Virus record (IMG/VR): IMGVR_UViG_3300041809_002179
Coordinates: 1-55,202 of that record
Strand: one strand, 5' to 3'
Length of the DNA: 55,202 bases
From: a virus
Taxonomy: Duplodnaviria; Caudoviricetes
The notes under the pieces are model-generated. The model saw only the letters and a program-made list of their open reading frames with translations. It searched no databases and had not been told where the DNA came from. Positions 30,894 to 36,449 of the stretch are shown here, one piece after another. Within the stretch, counting starts at the first letter, position 1; the number at the start of each line of letters is the position of its first letter. Both the position numbers and the translations under genes were made by a program.

Positions 30894-30968
30894 ATGAAAC
30901 GCAGCCTATCACTATCGAGCTATTATCTGTTGCTTAGCAACGGCTGCGCGGAGGTTCGCGTCGGATAA
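30894..30968 (+). CDS. Leader peptide of the Tyr/Leu tRNA operon, MKRSLSLSSYYLLLSNGCAEVRVG
   Basis: Manual translation; codons CTA, CTA, TAT, TAT, CTG, TTG, CTT; embedded in alternative hairpins; alternative in-frame ATG at 30888. Confidence 0.8.
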   Translation: MKRSLSLSSYYLLLSNGCAEVRVG

Positions 30969-31013
30969 AAGACGAGAACTGACCGAAAGCAGCCGCCGAA
31001 AGGCGGCATTTTT
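30900..31013 (+). promoter_or_regulatory. Transcription attenuator (1:2, 2:3, 3:4 hairpins)
   Basis: cgcagcc 30900-06 pairs ggctgcg 30942-48; cggctgc 30941-47 pairs gcagccg 30989-95, which overlaps the terminator stem. Confidence 0.8.
30992..31013 (+). terminator. Intrinsic terminator directly upstream of the tRNA cluster
   Basis: gccgcc-gaaa-ggcggc then attttt. Confidence 0.9.
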
Positions 31014-31024
31014 ATTGTTCGGAC

Positions 31025-31113
31025 GCATGCGATGGGAGAATTGGCTGATCCCAGTGGTCCGTAAAACCACCGCCCTCAGGGGCATGGGGGTTCGATTCCC
31101 TCGGCATGCACCA
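31025..31113 (+). tRNA. tRNA-Tyr(GTA)
   Basis: Stem gtggt/accac, loop CC-GTA-AA, long variable arm, T-loop TTCGATT, ACCA end. Confidence 0.85.
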
Positions 31114-31129
31114 GTTTAGATGTAGACGT

Positions 31130-31216
31130 GCGCTTGTGGCGAAATTGGCAGTCGCGCCAGCTCGAGGGGCTGGTGGTCGCAAGGCCGTGTCGGTTCGAGT
31201 CCGACCAGGCGCACCA
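31130..31216 (+). tRNA. tRNA-Leu(GAG)
   Basis: ccagc/gctgg stem, loop TC-GAG-GG, long variable arm, ACCA end. Confidence 0.88.
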
Positions 31217-31221
31217 AGTTT

Positions 31222-31308
31222 GCAGCTGTGGTGGAATTGGAAGACGCGCTGGACTTAGGATCCAGTGGCCGAAAGGCCGTGCAGGTTCGATGCCTGTCAG
31301 CTGCACCA
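31222..31308 (+). tRNA. tRNA-Leu(TAG)
   Basis: ctgga/tccag stem, loop CT-TAG-GA, ACCA end. Confidence 0.92.
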
Positions 31309-31314
31309 AGATTT

Positions 31315-31404
31315 GCGCGGGTGATGAAATTGGCAGCCATGTAGGATTCAGAATCCTATGCCCTTCAGCAAGGCGTGCCGGTTCGACTCCGGTCTCGCGC
31401 ACCA
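31315..31404 (+). tRNA. tRNA-Leu(CAG)
   Basis: tagga/tccta stem, loop TT-CAG-AA, ACCA end. Confidence 0.92.
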
Positions 31405-31409
31405 AGTTT

Positions 31410-31495
31410 GCGGTTATGGCGGAATGGCAGACGCGCTAGGCTCAAACCCTAGTGGGAGCAATCCCGTGGAGGTTCGACTCCTCTTAGCCGCACCA
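31410..31495 (+). tRNA. tRNA-Leu(CAA)
   Basis: ctagg/cctag stem, loop CT-CAA-AC, ACCA end. Confidence 0.93.
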
Positions 31496-32111: not shown

Positions 32112-32585
32112 ATGAAAACTCATCTCTTGGTGGTGGACGACGACAACGATGTTCGCGAGGGACTCGCTATGCACCTTTCGGACTTAGGGTACGCGGTTCG
32201 CCAAGCACGAAGCGGCGACGAGGGTCTAGAGTACTTCCACAATCGCGGGCCGTTTGGTTGCGTGATTTCCGACTACCAAATGCCTGGTTTGAAGATCAGG
32301 GACGGTGTGGCGATGCTCGCAGCCATCCGCGCCGAAGTACCGGAGCAGAAATGTATCATCCAATCTGCCAGTTGGAACTTAGCGGAATTGATGGAGGAGA
32401 TGGGGATTGGGGATATTCCGATTCTGCACAAGCCTTACAGTTTGAAAGAGATGGCGGAGGCTCTTACGAAAATGGGAGTGTTGGCCGATTATGGGAAGGC
32501 CGATCTCGACGACATTCGTTACGCTCAAGATTGTGAGTCAACAGATGGTGGAGTAGACGGCATAATCCAAGGATGGAAGAAATGA
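32112..32585 (+). CDS. Stand-alone response-regulator receiver domain (CheY-like)
   Basis: LLVVDDD, ISDYQMPG, QSA, HKPY. Confidence 0.9.
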   Translation: MKTHLLVVDDDNDVREGLAMHLSDLGYAVRQARSGDEGLEYFHNRGPFGCVISDYQMPGLKIRDGVAMLAAIRAEVPEQKCIIQSASWNLAELMEEMGIGDIPILHKPYSLKEMAEALTKMGVLADYGKADLDDIRYAQDCESTDGGVDGIIQGWKK

Positions 32586-32700
32586 AAAGTTGGTTAACGG
32601 CCACACTCACCGTTCTCTTTTTGGTCTTGACTGTAATTCGTTGTGCACAGATTTATCAGACGATCCAGTTAACGCACCAAATCGAACACCGGCTCAAGAA

Positions 32701-33234
32701 ATGAATTTACCCACCCGCATCGGTTGCTTCAAAGGTCCATGGGGCTTTTTGTCCAACTTTGCCCCGGCCAAAGTCAAGCTGTGGATAGACGAACGAAATG
32801 TTCCCTACGCTCACGACATCCATCTGTTCATTGCTCTCGATGTAGAAGAATACGAGAGTGTTGAACATGCCTATCACGCAGCCAAGTTTCTAGACCCAAA
32901 GATTCGCGCCTTATTCCGATTGGCCATATCACCCTCCGACGCTAAAGCGCAGGCTCACAAGCTCAAAGACAAGATTCGTCCGGATTGGAAAGAAGTCAGT
33001 CTGGTCATTATGAAGGACCTAGTCCTCCAGAAGTTCGCCGGCAGCATCATGCGCCGGAAGCTGCTGTCGACATTCCAAGCGGAGTTAGTCGAAGGCAACT
33101 GGTGGCATGACAACTTCTATGGTGATTGTCTCTGCGAAGACTGCGCGAACATCCCAGGCGAGAGCCATCTGGGAAAAATACTCATGGAAGTACGGGGGAT
33201 CATCTATGCTCGTGGTTTGTGCAAAGACAACTAA
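32701..33234 (+). CDS. NADAR (YbiA-like) family protein
   Basis: FLSNF, SVEHAYHAAKF, KF...LVEGNWWHDNFYG, LGKILMEVR. Confidence 0.9.
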   Translation: MNLPTRIGCFKGPWGFLSNFAPAKVKLWIDERNVPYAHDIHLFIALDVEEYESVEHAYHAAKFLDPKIRALFRLAISPSDAKAQAHKLKDKIRPDWKEVSLVIMKDLVLQKFAGSIMRRKLLSTFQAELVEGNWWHDNFYGDCLCEDCANIPGESHLGKILMEVRGIIYARGLCKDN

Positions 33235-33598
33235 AACGATGGACGGGACCTACCGCGTTACCCGTTGCCTGCATCCTTGGGAATCGATCGTAACCTGCGG
33301 AGTTCTAGCCGTTTATTTTCCGGACATCAAGCAAAACGATGCTCTCGATTTCATGACTTGGGTACGAAATTTTCAGCCTCTTTTTACGGATGTGATGGCC
33401 GCCGTTATCAGTGATGGATTGTTCTGGAGGACCGGGTCAATAGATGCCCCAACTTCTATAAGCATCCCAACATCGGAAGCTGAAAATCTTATCGACGCCG
33501 CGTTTGGAAAAGTTATCATAACCCCAAACGACAACGATCTCAAGTTTCTGAAGTCCCTGCGGATCAAATGGAGTTCCGATGAAGAAGTTGAAGCCTAA
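33206..33598 (+). CDS. Hypothetical protein
   Basis: ORF overlapping neighbours; start uncertain. Confidence 0.5.
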   Translation: MLVVCAKTTKTMDGTYRVTRCLHPWESIVTCGVLAVYFPDIKQNDALDFMTWVRNFQPLFTDVMAAVISDGLFWRTGSIDAPTSISIPTSEAENLIDAAFGKVIITPNDNDLKFLKSLRIKWSSDEEVEA

Positions 33599-34076
33599 GA
33601 AGCCGAAGATCAACCCGGACTACACTTGGTTCGATCTCAAGGTTGTCCGATCGCCCATCCACCGTTATGGTGTTGTCGCGAACGTGGACATCTCGAAGAA
33701 GAAATGGGTGATAGAGTACACTGGCGTCCTCATGAATCGCAGGCAGCACCGGTGGATGATCGACAATACTTCTGAGGAGCGCCAGATTTACATTTGGCAG
33801 GTGGCCAAAGGGCAAAACGATAGTGCAAACTGGGATTGGGTTATCGACGGCTGGACGAACGGTAGCGGAGCGGAGTTCATCAACCATTCCTGTGACCCCA
33901 ACCTGTACATGCATTTCATTGGACGCCGGGGCTATTATGTTTCTCTTCGCCCGATTAAGAAGGGCGAAGAACTAACCATTGACTATGCTTTTCGGTGGGA
34001 GAAAGATGAGAAGCGCCGGGTGAAGTGTAATTGTGGAAGCCCGAAATGCCGAGGCTGGATCAACAGAGAACGATAA
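33579..34076 (+). CDS. SET-domain protein-lysine methyltransferase
   Basis: SPIHRYGV, IEYTG, FINHSCDPN, GEELTIDY, post-SET CNCGSPKCRG. Confidence 0.95.
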   Translation: MKKLKPKKPKINPDYTWFDLKVVRSPIHRYGVVANVDISKKKWVIEYTGVLMNRRQHRWMIDNTSEERQIYIWQVAKGQNDSANWDWVIDGWTNGSGAEFINHSCDPNLYMHFIGRRGYYVSLRPIKKGEELTIDYAFRWEKDEKRRVKCNCGSPKCRGWINRER

Positions 34077-34355
34077 TCTAACTGAAATTGTTAATTTCCC
34101 AGTAATATGTAGAGGACGGCGAGACTCGCACCACTACGCTCTAGTAAGACCAAAGAGACTTGGGCCTTCGTTGGACCGTCCACTAGCACTGCGAAATTTC
34201 TTAGTGCGCTGCAAAGTGCGCTCGGGGATAAAGTAGCAGTGCAACCAGAAGCTAAGGTTGCCCAGCGATAGAGGCGAAGCCGGATATTGCACTGGGTTGG
34301 CGAACAGCGACACCGGACCTGCCCTCCGGACTATCTGGTTACATGGCATAATTTT

Positions 34356-34421
34356 ATGGCGACGAAGATACCAACGATGCGACCGCAACCCCGAGTGCTC
34401 GGGGTTTCTGAAGGCGACTAA
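34356..34421 (+). CDS. Leader peptide of the Pro/CAT tRNA operon, MATKIPTMRPQPRVLGVSEGD
   Basis: Manual translation; codons ATA, CCA, ATG, CCG, CCC; preceded by TGgCATAAT extended -10-like sequence and no SD. Confidence 0.75.
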   Translation: MATKIPTMRPQPRVLGVSEGD

Positions 34422-34456
34422 GCCTTCGAACCCTGAGCGCAATGCCAGGGTTTGTT
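34387..34456 (+). promoter_or_regulatory. Transcription attenuator (1:2, 2:3, 3:4 hairpins)
   Basis: aaccccga 34387-94 / tcggggtt 34399-406; ctcggggtt 34398-406 / aaccctgag 34429-37 enclosing gaaggc/gccttc; terminator aaccctg 34429-35 / cagggtt 34446-52 + tgtt. Confidence 0.75.
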
Positions 34457-34500
34457 CCGGATTCAATCCCAACAATTCACTGGCTTCCCCGTTTTGATAT

Positions 34501-34578
34501 CGGGACATGGCGCAGTCTGGTTAGCGCACCGGTCTGGGGGACCGGGGGTCGCCAGTTCGAATCTGGCTGTCCCGACCA
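34501..34578 (+). tRNA. tRNA-Pro(GGG)
   Basis: C1-G72, ccggt/accgg stem, loop CT-GGG-GG, ACCA end. Confidence 0.95.
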
Positions 34579-34589
34579 ATTTTTGAATC

Positions 34590-34782
34590 GACCGCATAGC
34601 TCAAAGGTTAGAGCGGCGCAAATGGACAGGGCGTGGCAAGGGCAGCAAGTTGCGGAAGAACCGAAAAGGCTGTTGAGCCGGAGGCCGGGGATAATCCGGT
34701 CACTCTACGGAGTGTAGGGAATCGCGTTGCAGCTGTCTAAACGGCGGAAGCCGGATGGGGTTCGAGTCCCCTGCGGTCATCA
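34590..34782 (+). ncRNA. tRNA-like RNA with a large structured insert in place of the anticodon arm
   Basis: Acceptor gaccgca/tgcggtc, D-arm tagctcaaaggttagagc, T-arm gggg-ttcgagt-cccc, ATCA end. Confidence 0.6.
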
Positions 34783-34794
34783 GTTTAGGAGTAT

Positions 34795-34871
34795 CAGGGT
34801 ATAGCTCAGCCTGGTAGAGCGCACGTTTCGGGAACGTGAGGTCGCTGGTTCAATCCCAGTTACCCTGACCA
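34795..34871 (+). tRNA. tRNA-Pro(CGG)
   Basis: cacgt/acgtg stem, loop TT-CGG-GA, ACCA end. Confidence 0.95.
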
Positions 34872-34886
34872 ATTTAGGAGGATGTT

Positions 34887-35006
34887 ATGGGGTTGAGGCT
34901 GCTGCTTGTAGGCTTGATGGTTTCAGGAAGCCTGATGCTTGGTGCAAGTGTGCTTCTCAGCGTCATGGCTCTGGTTGAGAAGTACCGGCCATCGGGTAAG
35001 TTTTAA
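34887..35006 (+). CDS. Small single-TM peptide between tRNAs
   Basis: SD aggagg; MGLRLLLVGLMVSGSLMLGASVLLSVMALVEKYRPSGKF. Confidence 0.5.
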   Translation: MGLRLLLVGLMVSGSLMLGASVLLSVMALVEKYRPSGKF

Positions 35007-35010
35007 GTTT

Positions 35011-35087
35011 CGGCGATTAGCGCAGTCGGGTAGCGCACATGCCTTGGGCGCATGGGGTCGGGGGTTCAAATCCCTCATCGCCGACCA
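35011..35087 (+). tRNA. tRNA-Pro(TGG)
   Basis: catgc/gcatg stem, loop CT-TGG-GC, ACCA end. Confidence 0.95.
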
Positions 35088-35327
35088 ATTTTGAGTGTGC
35101 GGTCGGGCACCCCACTCCTTGCTTCTGCTTGGGTGCAAGTGGTGCATGCGAGTGCCGACCGCCTTGAATTTCGGAGGAACAATGTTCGAGGCAGACAAAT
35201 GGCAGCACAAGAATTGCGGCGGGCAACCCCGTGAGTTTGAGCCAGGAAAATGGGAGTGCACGAAATGCAACGGTGCATGGTACGCCGGGGTTGATTTCTT
35301 CAAGTACCTGGCAAATGTAGTGTTCGT

Positions 35328-35404
35328 GGCTCTGTAGACTGGAGACGGTTCCAGCGTGGCCTCATAAGCCAATCACGTCGGTTCGATTCCGACTAGAGCC
35401 ACCA
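35328..35404 (+). tRNA. Elongator tRNA(CAT): Met or Ile2
   Basis: ggctctg/tagagcc acceptor, loop CT-CAT-AA, atypical D-arm, ACCA end. Confidence 0.8.
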
Positions 35405-35552
35405 AATTTAACTTTCAAGAACTATTTCAGCGCTGTGGCAAGGGAACCGGCTCCTTCTTTGGTCCGGCCAGCGCATAACACATAAGGAGGATATCAGATG
35501 GCTATGCACACGTCCCATACCGCGTAATGTGTGGGCGGAAAGGCTTAGTCAT

Positions 35553-35852
35553 ATGGATCATCCGAAGGATCGCCGGGAACGGCGGGCCGTGCGGGATGTT
35601 GTAATCGCTCGTAGAAAGTTTATCGTCACCCAAATTTGGGGACAAGACTCATATAGTAAGAGCAGCGACTTTCAACGTAAGTGGATCGCTGAAATGGAGT
35701 GGGGTAAGTACGCCAAGTTCAATTTGAACTGTGGTTGTATGATGTGCCACTCTCCGAAGTATCTCAGTGCCAAGCGCAAGCGCCGGTTGGCCCTAAAATT
35801 TTCTGAGTCACAGGCAGAATTTCGCCATAATGACAACGCAATTAAGTATTGA
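35553..35852 (+). CDS. Basic hypothetical protein
   Basis: Arg/Lys-rich with CGCMMC. Confidence 0.55.
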   Translation: MDHPKDRRERRAVRDVVIARRKFIVTQIWGQDSYSKSSDFQRKWIAEMEWGKYAKFNLNCGCMMCHSPKYLSAKRKRRLALKFSESQAEFRHNDNAIKY

Positions 35853-35858
35853 AGATTG

Positions 35859-36122
35859 ATGGCAAAGACCAAGAGATCGGAACTTAGAGAAAAATTGCTG
35901 GCCTTGGTGACGGAGATGGGTGTATTGCCTCCTGCCGAAGCCAAGCGGCTCGCGAGTAGACTTTGTGACATGGCATATGGTTGGATGAGGACTCCTGAAT
36001 CTGAAGGAGATGCTTTTCTGACAGCTTTCAAAGCCAAGTTGCTTGAAGAGTTTTCGCCGAAGGTGAAGAAGAGAAAGGAAAATAGTCGGGGTGGTGGGCT
36101 TAAAAGCAGCCATCCTCAATGA
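35859..36122 (+). CDS. Hypothetical protein
   Basis: AGTATT motif 14 nt upstream; 3' end overlaps the structured RNA. Confidence 0.5.
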   Translation: MAKTKRSELREKLLALVTEMGVLPPAEAKRLASRLCDMAYGWMRTPESEGDAFLTAFKAKLLEEFSPKVKKRKENSRGGGLKSSHPQ

Positions 36123-36282
36123 GTGTCTCGCTGAATCCTCGAATACGAGGTCGTGGCTGCCGAAGAAGGGCCGAACGTACTCACGCGGAAGGCAAGAGGA
36201 TTGCAGTTCAGCTACCGAGTAAGAAGCGGCTGACCGACATTGAGTTGTGGCCAGGACTTTAGCGTAACAGCACGCCTCGACT
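36084..36282 (+). ncRNA. RNA resembling 23S rRNA helices 43-44 (uL11-binding site) with internal insert
   Basis: GGTGGGCTTAAAAGCAGCCATCC ... AGCGTAACAGCAC closed by agtcggggtg/cgcctcgact. Confidence 0.7.
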
Positions 36283-36372
36283 TTACGACTTTATGATTTC
36301 AAGTGGCTGCTCCGCACTAAACGACGGAGCGAGGAACTAAGTATCATTGAGGGATACCAGCCACAGTTTTGA

Positions 36373-36449
36373 AGCGGGGTAGAGCAGCCAGGTAGCTTGT
36401 CGGGCTCATAATCCGAAGGTCGTCAGTTCAAATCTGACCCCCGCAACCA
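36373..36449 (+). tRNA. Initiator tRNA-fMet(CAT)
   Basis: 1:72 mismatch, tcggg-CTCATAA-tccga, ACCA end. Confidence 0.9.

Follow-up and report, generated by a model that had tools for sequence, protein, structure and literature searches.

A putative ribosome-sensing leader ahead of a proline tRNA gene cluster in a large environmental phage

The classical leader-peptide attenuators are those of the amino-acid operons (trpL, hisL, leuL, pheL, thrL and ilvL), and in E. coli a leader-peptide attenuator, pheM, also precedes the aminoacyl-transfer RNA (tRNA) synthetase genes pheST. T-box riboswitches bind uncharged tRNA directly and need no open reading frame (ORF). The tRNAs borne by phages are as a rule seen as a constitutive addition to the host pool. 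In excerpts of a study of Streptomyces lividans, leaderless leader peptides are predicted before leuS, trpS, alaS and thrS, several of them without a uridine-rich stretch (PMC8079986). No description of leader-peptide control of tRNA genes was found in the full-text literature that we searched, the coverage of which stops short of subscription journals. Here we describe a short ORF and a set of competing hairpins directly 5' of a cluster of tRNA-Pro genes in a 55,202-nucleotide (nt) stretch of phage DNA (record IMGVR_UViG_3300041809_002179, positions 1 to 55,202), which at its full length is called the window below. Judged from sequence comparison, this Pro leader is probably a ribosome-sensing leader-peptide switch that controls the tRNA-Pro cluster, whatever its output step may be.

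The elements of the leader and the first genes of the cluster behind it are the following.

34356..34421, + strand: leader ORF of 21 codons, MATKIPTMRPQPRVLGVSEGD, from the ORF list and its translation, without a Shine-Dalgarno sequence
34371..34391, + strand: sensor codons CCA (34371-73), CGA-CCG (34380-85, with CCG at 34383-85) and CCC (34389-91), with ATG (34377-79) as a further candidate
34387..34395, + strand: region 1 (partner: region 2), a perfect 9-nt inverted repeat with 34398-406
34395..34406, + strand: region 2 (partner: region 1 or region 3), from folding and sub-helix energies
34410..34427, + strand: inner hairpin GAAGGC/GCCTTC, the apical loop of which holds the stop TAA (34419-21); folding free energy (dG) -10.5
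34429..34440, + strand: region 3 (partner: region 2 or region 4), its start 12 nt downstream of the first stop-codon base
34444..34456, + strand: region 4 (34444-52; partner: region 3 or region 5) with the weak U-rich tail TTTGTT (34451-56)
34444..34484, + strand: helix 4:5 domain, a putative tRNA-derived minihelix, with region 5 at 34477-84 and an inner hairpin with a T-loop remnant at 34462-71
34501..34578, + strand: tRNA-Pro(GGG), from ARAGORN and Rfam, first gene of the putatively regulated cluster
34795..34871, + strand: tRNA-Pro(CGG), from ARAGORN and Rfam
35011..35087, + strand: tRNA-Pro(TGG), from ARAGORN and Rfam
35328..35404, + strand: tRNA(CAT), Met or Ile2, from ARAGORN and Rfam
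36373-36449: second tRNA(CAT), from ARAGORN, also found by the Rfam gathering scan

The Pro leader is a short, codon-enriched ORF directly 5' of the genes that it would regulate, and these genes are tRNAs, not protein genes for biosynthesis, transport or aminoacyl-tRNA synthetases. A first-pass annotation, made from the letters of the window alone, had taken it for a proline attenuator, pointing to three different Pro codons (CCA, CCG and CCC) ahead of tRNA-Pro genes with the anticodons GGG, CGG and TGG, and all of these are present by ORF translation, ARAGORN and Rfam. It had also tied an ATA codon (34368-70) and an internal ATG (34377-79) to the CAT tRNAs, which fits the composition of the leaders, in which non-initiator Met makes up 9.7% of residues against 2% in the long ORFs of the phage, Pro 18.3% against 5% and Phe 7.5% against 4.1%, an enrichment that matches the Pro, CAT and Phe tRNAs downstream in relatives. 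Two CGA (Arg) codons that it had listed as having no matching tRNA do occur, at 34380-82 and 34392-94, in front of a cluster without a CGA-reading tRNA.

The nonamer AACCCYGAG or its complement has three matches in the 55 kb window where 0.90 are expected, and all three lie in the leader, at region 1 (34387-95), region 2 (34398-406) and region 3 (34429-37). As a whole, the 157-nt leader folds to -56.2 kcal/mol (z = -3.9; 1 of 200 shuffles was equally good), and its minimum-energy fold consists of the long 2:3 hairpin, with the stop codon in the apical loop, and hairpin 4:5. The sub-helix energies are -12.9 (1:2), -33.5 (2:3), -15.9 (3:4) and -15.9 kcal/mol (4:5), and the global conformers are nearly isoenergetic, 2:3 together with 4:5 reaching -53.2 and 1:2 together with 3:4 reaching -49.4 kcal/mol, a gap of 3.8. 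Helices 1:2, 2:3 and 3:4 are mutually exclusive, with region 1 inside the ORF, and these overlapping hairpins, already proposed in the first pass, are borne out by window folding and by pairing in relatives. The 3:4 helix is there as proposed, with its 3' arm corrected to 34446-34452 (CAGGGTT) and with GC/GC pairs between 34437-38 and 34444-45 that extend it. Beyond that earlier account there is a fifth region, as region 4 also pairs with 34477-84 to give helix 4:5. Nothing marks the Pro leader as a T-box riboswitch: an Rfam search of 33900-35600 with E up to 10, T-box covariance model included, returned only tRNAs and chance-level matches.

Relatives of the leader had to be sought by several routes. 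Against GenBank phages the region matched at the tRNAs only, in 247 records of which none covered more than about 3% of the query, and among viral contigs neither the SET-domain neighbour nor an exact 20-mer of hairpin 1:2 gave relatives. A search with the UvsX-like recombinase led to four related viral contigs, one of which, 170 kb long (46% identity in the recombinase), has the same tRNA layout; 5' of its first tRNA-Pro stands a strong sigma-70-like promoter and then a 24-codon ORF with CCA, CCG, CCA and CCC, the stop of which lies in the apical loop of a long hairpin, with an alternative 3:4 hairpin after it. With an alignment of two NADAR proteins, 80 loci were fetched by a synteny approach independent of leader motifs, and in nine of them, from six lineages, Tyr/Leu tRNAs are followed by NADAR and then by Pro/Met/Phe tRNA clusters. 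When the window is added to these six lineages, a short ATG ORF with 3-6 Pro codons is found just 5' of the first tRNA-Pro in all seven.

Searches with leader motifs pointed to the same place. A 16-position motif had 58 matches in viral contigs; behind 12 of them the next 600 nt contain a tRNA, each time with tRNA-Pro in first place, and the remaining 46, without a tRNA, are chance matches. A 20-position motif had 30 matches in metagenomes, five of them in long unrelated frames and 25 in leader-type short ORFs, for 22 of which the first downstream tRNA is tRNA-Pro; of the other three, two run into the end of their contig and one lacks a tRNA in the following 600 nt. A motif of the window type, CGACCGCAACC-N6-GCTCG, had 27 matches with leaders only in L096/L138, so that it brought no close relative of the leader version that the window has.

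The comparative set comprised 23 distinct leader sequences, window included. Sixteen of these aligned rows were retrieved by motifs that fix codons 4-6 and 10-12, and in 13 rows columns 36-39 were fixed as well; regions 2 to 5, the stop and the spacer lie outside the retrieval motifs. All 23 variants have an ATG with an open frame of 19-25 codons, and all 23 keep at least three Pro codons, so that the check proposed in the first pass, whether homologues lose their Pro codons, came out in favour of the idea. In-frame gaps in the alignment span 3 or 6 columns, and gaps after the stop are of any length. The stop may be TAA, TAG or TGA and lies in the apical loop of the 2:3 hairpin in every variant; it begins exactly 12 nt past the end of region 2 in 18 of the 23 (15 nt in the window), and the distance from the stop to the start of region 3 is 12-16 nt in 20 (window: 12 nt), the inner hairpin varying freely in sequence. 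Given the size of the ribosome footprint on messenger RNA, from which it is inferred which regions a stalled ribosome covers, the stop is so placed that a terminating ribosome would prevent the antiterminator. A Pro codon opens region 1 in every row, and CCG is the first codon of region 1 in all alignment rows. The residues encoded at columns 41 and 52 vary in concert, as partners in base pairs (Thr goes with Val, Met with Met, Asn with Leu). What is conserved is the open frame, its end point and certain codons, not the peptide, and this is the signature that would be expected of an attenuator leader.

The changes at columns 41 and 52 follow base pairing and not peptide identity, and they can be cited for an RNA-only leader, in which the hairpins and minihelix would be signals for the processing (by RNase P, RNase E or RNase III) or folding of tRNA precursors, or would act as a structural insulator, and the ORF would be untranslated. 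Such a leader would also suit the lack of a Shine-Dalgarno sequence, U-tracts that are weak or absent, and the reuse of tRNA-Pro acceptor-stem sequence in regions 2-5, where region 5 resembles a tRNA 3' end and a T-loop 10-mer is shared. Yet it has no need for the ATG and open frame that all 23 variants share, nor for indels of 3n only and an in-frame apical-loop stop of three kinds at a fixed 12 nt from region 2, and it leaves unexplained why the sister leaders described below carry exactly the codons of their own downstream tRNAs. We regard it as decidedly improbable.

Regarding codon usage in the leaders, Arg is almost always CGA and stands directly before a Pro codon, as CGA-CCA or CGA-CCG, at family codons 5-6 and 11-12 and at 34380-85 in the window. 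It may be that CGA-Pro is read slowly and makes the stall sharper, or that the pair reflects a constraint at the RNA level; the retrieval motifs partly impose it.

Covariation in the relatives, the other comparative check that had been proposed, was found as compensatory changes in each of the three helices.

Helix 1:2: 91.9% of cells paired (best slid control 67.4%); score reached by 6 of 500 shuffles; one pair occurs as CG 8, UA 7, AU 1 and UG 1
Helix 2:3: 95.7% of cells paired (best slid control 69.7%); score reached by 0 of 500 shuffles; four pairs changed on both sides
Helix 3:4: 84.2% of cells paired, a figure that includes six misaligned divergent rows (best slid control 50.5%); score reached by 0 of 500 shuffles; one pair occurs as CG 11, UA 6 and UG 1

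Column 104 of region 3 covaries both with its region 2 partner and with its region 4 partner, and that one nucleotide should follow both argues that both alternative states are selected. Helix 4:5 was found in all 18 long variants, in 15 of which no more than 5 of 200 shuffles were equally good, and the base left as a bulge in 3:4 has a partner in 4:5, with which it changes in a compensatory way (U-A, A-U, C-G). A covariance model built from 22 relatives with the window excluded (model R1) has its top window match at 34356-34472, with 16.7 bits and an E-value of about 0.006 under a rough calibration, and its alignment runs from the window ATG through all eight 2:3 pairs. Over the 80 NADAR-anchored loci (1.17 Mb) the same model gave nine matches, all just 5' of the first tRNA-Pro and all training sequences or duplicates. 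Within the family the window leader is divergent, with two 2-codon deletions, a region 1 sequence of its own and a 240-nt 5' untranslated region (UTR) without homologue, and a similar version is found in one other contig pair only. Taken together, the alignment indicates selection on the ORF, on the four competing helices and on their geometry. A chance ORF with chance hairpins in a GC-rich spacer might be entertained on the window by itself, where three Pro in 21 codons are weak evidence alone and 4 of 100 shuffles reach three matches of the nonamer; conservation and covariation in 23 variants and the specific linkage to tRNA-Pro contradict it, and we give it practically no credence.

On these grounds a sequence of events can be proposed. 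Transcription would start upstream, probably near 34115, and the ORF at 34356-34421 would be translated. Were tRNA-Pro, and probably also the CAT tRNA, limiting, the ribosome would linger at CGA-CCG or CCC and cover region 1, leaving region 2 free, so that the long 2:3 hairpin could form; region 4 would then close with region 5 as the tRNA-like minihelix, and the tRNA genes would be expressed. With fast decoding, the ribosome would reach the stop in the 2:3 apical loop and hold 2:3 open as region 3 emerges just ahead of it, and with an untranslated leader 1:2 would form; in both situations region 3 could pair with region 4, and output would fall. In the window the likeliest output of 3:4 would be a weak intrinsic terminator (the hairpin plus UUUGUU), the alternative being that it keeps the 5' acceptor strand of a tRNA or tRNA-like helix out of folding or processing. 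That the leader is translated, that ribosomes stall on it and which way the logic runs are points that we infer, the last of these (shortage leading to more tRNA) by analogy and from the sister leaders.

Several observations weigh against a translated, ribosome-sensing leader. The main weakness is that no Shine-Dalgarno sequence precedes the leader ATG, as the first-pass annotation had claimed and as holds for the window and relatives alike, in phages where those of neighbouring genes are strong. Pro is only modestly enriched in single sequences (binomial p 0.0003-0.03), there is enrichment of CGA and Thr codons too, the tRNAs for which are absent from the cluster, and conservation at the motif-fixed codons is partly by construction. 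Leader codons 1-11 have no third-position bias, with 5, 5 and 6 variable columns by codon position, which implies that the peptide sequence itself is not under protein-like selection; this is expected for an attenuator and adds no proof of translation. Region 1 of the window differs from that of the core family, and the model score is modest. As for the output, 3:4 is not among the hairpins called by a simple terminator scan, about 7 of the 23 variants have a poor tail behind it (L118, L172, L176, L161, L174, L108, L154), and two lineages (L101/L113 and L111) have no spacer, region 4 being the first 4-6 nt of tRNA-Pro(TGG). Finally, an RNA-library contig reads through to 34626, which tells that read-through molecules or DNA exist and nothing more.

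In the window the 3:4 stem has 9 base pairs (bp) with one bulge (dG -15.9) and the tail UUUGUU, and weak intrinsic termination here is a possible output that falls somewhat short of being probable. The first pass had already called the U-tract weak, which is borne out: UUUGUU is what the window has, CUUUGU stands in about a third of relatives, and a U-tract is absent in several. The lack of a spacer means that 3:4 cannot be a classical terminator in L101/L113 and L111, where region 3 and region 4 pair as CGGGAU with AUCCCG in one lineage and as CGGGGU with ACCCCG in the other. This pairing brings in a sub-case of the ribosome-sensing reading, in which region 3 is a rival partner for an acceptor strand on the 5' side, that of a tRNA in the short variants and that of the 4:5 minihelix in the long ones, the window among them, and leader translation would gate the folding or 5' processing of the precursor and not the release of polymerase. 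That region 4 is the 5' end of tRNA-Pro(TGG) in two independent lineages, with region 3 covarying, speaks for acceptor-strand gating, as do the weak U-tracts after 3:4 and the conservation of helix 4:5 with its compensatory change at the nucleotide bulged in 3:4; moreover, 4:5 forms after the 3:4 tail has been transcribed and cannot affect termination there, so it must serve something else.

The nature of the 4:5 domain bears on this directly. In many relatives region 5 has the sequence of the tRNA-Pro 3' acceptor strand with the discriminator, and the 10-mer at 34462-71 of the window is identical to the T-arm of tRNA-Pro(CGG) at 34849-58; because of these two features the domain looks like a decayed tRNA-Pro that has kept an acceptor-like helix, and neither Rfam nor ARAGORN calls a tRNA at 34444-34484. 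Between regions 4 and 5, the long variants carry a conserved hairpin-loop motif close to GAAAUUCCCAAC (34459-34475 in the window), which is probably the T-loop remnant of a pseudo-tRNA. The gated helix of the long variants would thus be a pseudo-tRNA and not a functional tRNA, and any benefit of acceptor-strand gating would be indirect there. A relay from region 5 to the real tRNA 5' end in these variants was considered and rejected, the complementarity being only 3-5 bp by eye, which counts against gating too. We know of no precedent for such a mechanism, and the sister leaders in the same phages use plain terminators; on balance, we think acceptor-strand gating rather unlikely.

An inverted logic has also to be weighed, with 4:5 and its G/U-rich tail as the terminator and 3:4 as the antiterminator, so that stalling at Pro codons would shut the operon off. 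Several variants do have a better U-run after region 5 than after region 4, e.g. UUUGUGCUUU (L118/L172) and UUUUUGCAUUU (L095), but the tails are poor in others, including L119, L160, L162, L178 and L182, and with some 45 nt and an inner hairpin enclosed in it, 4:5 is not built like a typical intrinsic terminator. Such a switch would starve the phage of tRNA-Pro exactly in shortage and would run opposite to the sister leaders; it appears very improbable.

The sister leaders indicate that the Pro leader belongs to a wider system in this phage clade, in which there appear to be at least three differently themed tRNA leaders. One of them is in the window itself, at 30894-30968, and encodes MKRSLSLSSYYLLLSNGCAEVRVG, with the codons CTA, CTA, TAT, TAT, CTG, TTG and CTT, that is, one codon type for each downstream tRNA (Leu TAG, CAG, CAA and GAG; Tyr GTA). 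In it CGCAGCC (region 1) pairs with GGCTGCG (region 2), a hairpin loop holds the stop, and just before tRNA-Tyr, at 30992-31007, the terminator scan calls a canonical terminator with a U-run; the minimum-energy fold is 1:2 plus this terminator. A -10-like TAGTAT at 30882-87 would put the start of its transcript at the ATG, i.e. as a leaderless transcript. Homologues of the Tyr/Leu leader are present in 7 of 7 lineages, all with canonical terminators. The third leader precedes a cluster of Val/Gly/Ala/Asp/Glu/Cys tRNAs in all three relatives examined (L018 8838-9017, L019 9219-9376 and L064 8918-9085); its peptides are rich in V, A, G, D, E and C (and I), a hairpin loop again contains the stop, and a canonical terminator comes behind it. 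A generic scan for cognate-codon leaders at every tRNA cluster head in all loci gave, beyond the Pro, Tyr/Leu and Val types, only weak unconserved candidates.

A part of the first-pass proposal that found no support concerns the transcript start: comparison supports the translated-leader design and the exclusive hairpins, and speaks against a leaderless transcript initiated from TGGCATAAT (34344-52). The -10 hexamer ends only 3 nt before the ATG, contigs of two RNA libraries cross the site from upstream, and the promoter-like sites of relatives lie 40-110 nt 5' of the ORF. The features ahead of the leader are as follows.

34344..34352, + strand: TGGCATAAT, earlier proposed as an extended -10 element, probably not a promoter, the site not being conserved in relatives
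34101..34109, + strand: candidate promoter -10 region AGTAATATG (-10-like site 34103-08), by likeness to the -10/start regions before relatives' leaders
34115..34355, + strand: putative long structured 5' UTR, lineage-specific, from RNA-library contig cover and the fold of 34080-34500 (z = -4.0)

The RNA-library contigs come from two different studies and cover 34119-34626 (X5) and 34170-34368 (X7), with flanks without cover; all four sequencing runs consist of assembled contigs, in which transcript ends, strand and levels are not readable and the uncovered parts in X5, X7 and X8 carry no meaning. As a sign of an upstream start they are a weak hint. One of them starts at 34119, near the candidate -10 site at 34101-34109, and a transcript start near 34115 is tentatively suggested; the pattern AGTAWTATR has one match in the window against 0.53 expected, with no enrichment over chance. 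For the 5' UTR (34100-34360), no Rfam family was found and blastn and nhmmer gave no homologue among 200 loci. This 240-nt region (34115-34355) includes a hairpin with a GCAA tetraloop at 34203-34222.

The window is a 55.2 kb piece of an uncultivated virus record, and since CheckV puts its completeness at 17%, the phage is taken to be large. Replication and structural genes of a phage are present, most genes are on the + strand, and near-identical DNA occurs in wetland metagenome runs; peat and soil runs have small matching shares, mostly at the tRNAs. Two tRNA clusters are found, the first with Tyr and four Leu tRNAs (31025-31495) and the second with three Pro and two CAT tRNAs (34501-36449). 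Between them (32112-34076) are genes for a response-regulator receiver, a NADAR and a SET-domain protein, and this position of the NADAR gene is kept in related phages. In most relatives the first tRNA-Pro(TGG) after the leader (e.g. L014 9053-9140) is unusually long, at 87-90 nt where the other tRNA-Pro genes have 75-78, and its D-arm region is odd. Between tRNA-Pro(GGG) and tRNA-Pro(CGG) of the window, at 34590-34779, there is a tRNA-like gene with clear acceptor, D and T arms; its anticodon/variable region has an insert of about 100-120 nt, and CCA is not encoded. When introns are allowed, ARAGORN reads it as a doubtful Ser(GGA) with a 98-nt intron, and Rfam gives only weak YrlA-like edge matches. 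Two further ORFs have strong Shine-Dalgarno sequences, one of 39 amino acids, hydrophobic, between tRNA-Pro(CGG) and tRNA-Pro(TGG) (34887-35006), and one of 51 amino acids, Cys-rich (35182-35337), the last codons and stop of which lie inside the tRNA(CAT) at 35328-404; no Pfam match was found for either.

If the Pro leader works as proposed, a leader that senses the codons of its own tRNAs would mean closed feedback on tRNA supply, per isoacceptor and with the host ribosome as the sensor, and attenuation, familiar from enzymes and synthetases, would reach the tRNA genes as well. The leader would offer a compact natural sensor of codon-specific decoding capacity, and three themed leaders in one clade give a handle on why and when large phages need many tRNAs. 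The tRNA-derived 4:5 domain, together with the variants that have a tRNA 5' end in the switch, raises the possibility of translation-gated tRNA maturation. A bolder proposal, which we advance as speculative, is that a large environmental phage clade runs its tRNA genes as amino-acid-themed operons, each autoregulated by a leader that test-reads one codon per downstream tRNA, and that the Pro type goes beyond the termination of transcription, its region 3 capturing the 5' acceptor strand of the tRNA or minihelix, so that translation speed would gate co-transcriptional tRNA folding or RNase P processing. Translation-gated folding or processing of tRNAs, if true, would be a mode of tRNA control not described before.

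Compared with described systems, the Pro leader shares with the Streptomyces leaders, in the excerpts cited above, that several have hairpins and no uridine-rich stretch and that many are leaderless or lack a Shine-Dalgarno sequence, those leaders being predictions from RNA sequencing and not tested mechanisms (PMC8079986). With its sister leaders it has in common a short ORF without a Shine-Dalgarno sequence, codons for each downstream tRNA, a stop in a hairpin loop and competing helices; the sisters differ in their canonical terminators of GC-stem and U-run (10 of 10 examined) and in having no tRNA-like 4:5 domain. T-boxes and the Pro leader both match expression to the supply of specific tRNAs by a choice between antiterminator and terminator, but the T-box does so by binding uncharged tRNA directly, without an ORF. 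The leaders of synthetase genes, as would the Pro leader, place the supply chain of tRNA charging under the control of ribosomes stalled at cognate codons; they control a protein gene, whereas the targets of the Pro leader would be the tRNAs themselves. The Pro leader has in common with the classical attenuators a short ORF containing the sensed codons, overlapping 1:2, 2:3 and 3:4 helices, a stop from which the terminating ribosome would prevent 2:3, and 1:2 as the default of an untranslated leader. It departs from them in that the sensor codons are dispersed, one per isoacceptor (CCA, CCG, CCC), and not in a run, in the stop within the 2:3 apical loop, the extra tRNA-derived 4:5 helix and the weak U-tract, in being encoded by a phage, and in its putative target, tRNA genes and not amino-acid-making enzymes, so that the molecule sensed would be the product itself.

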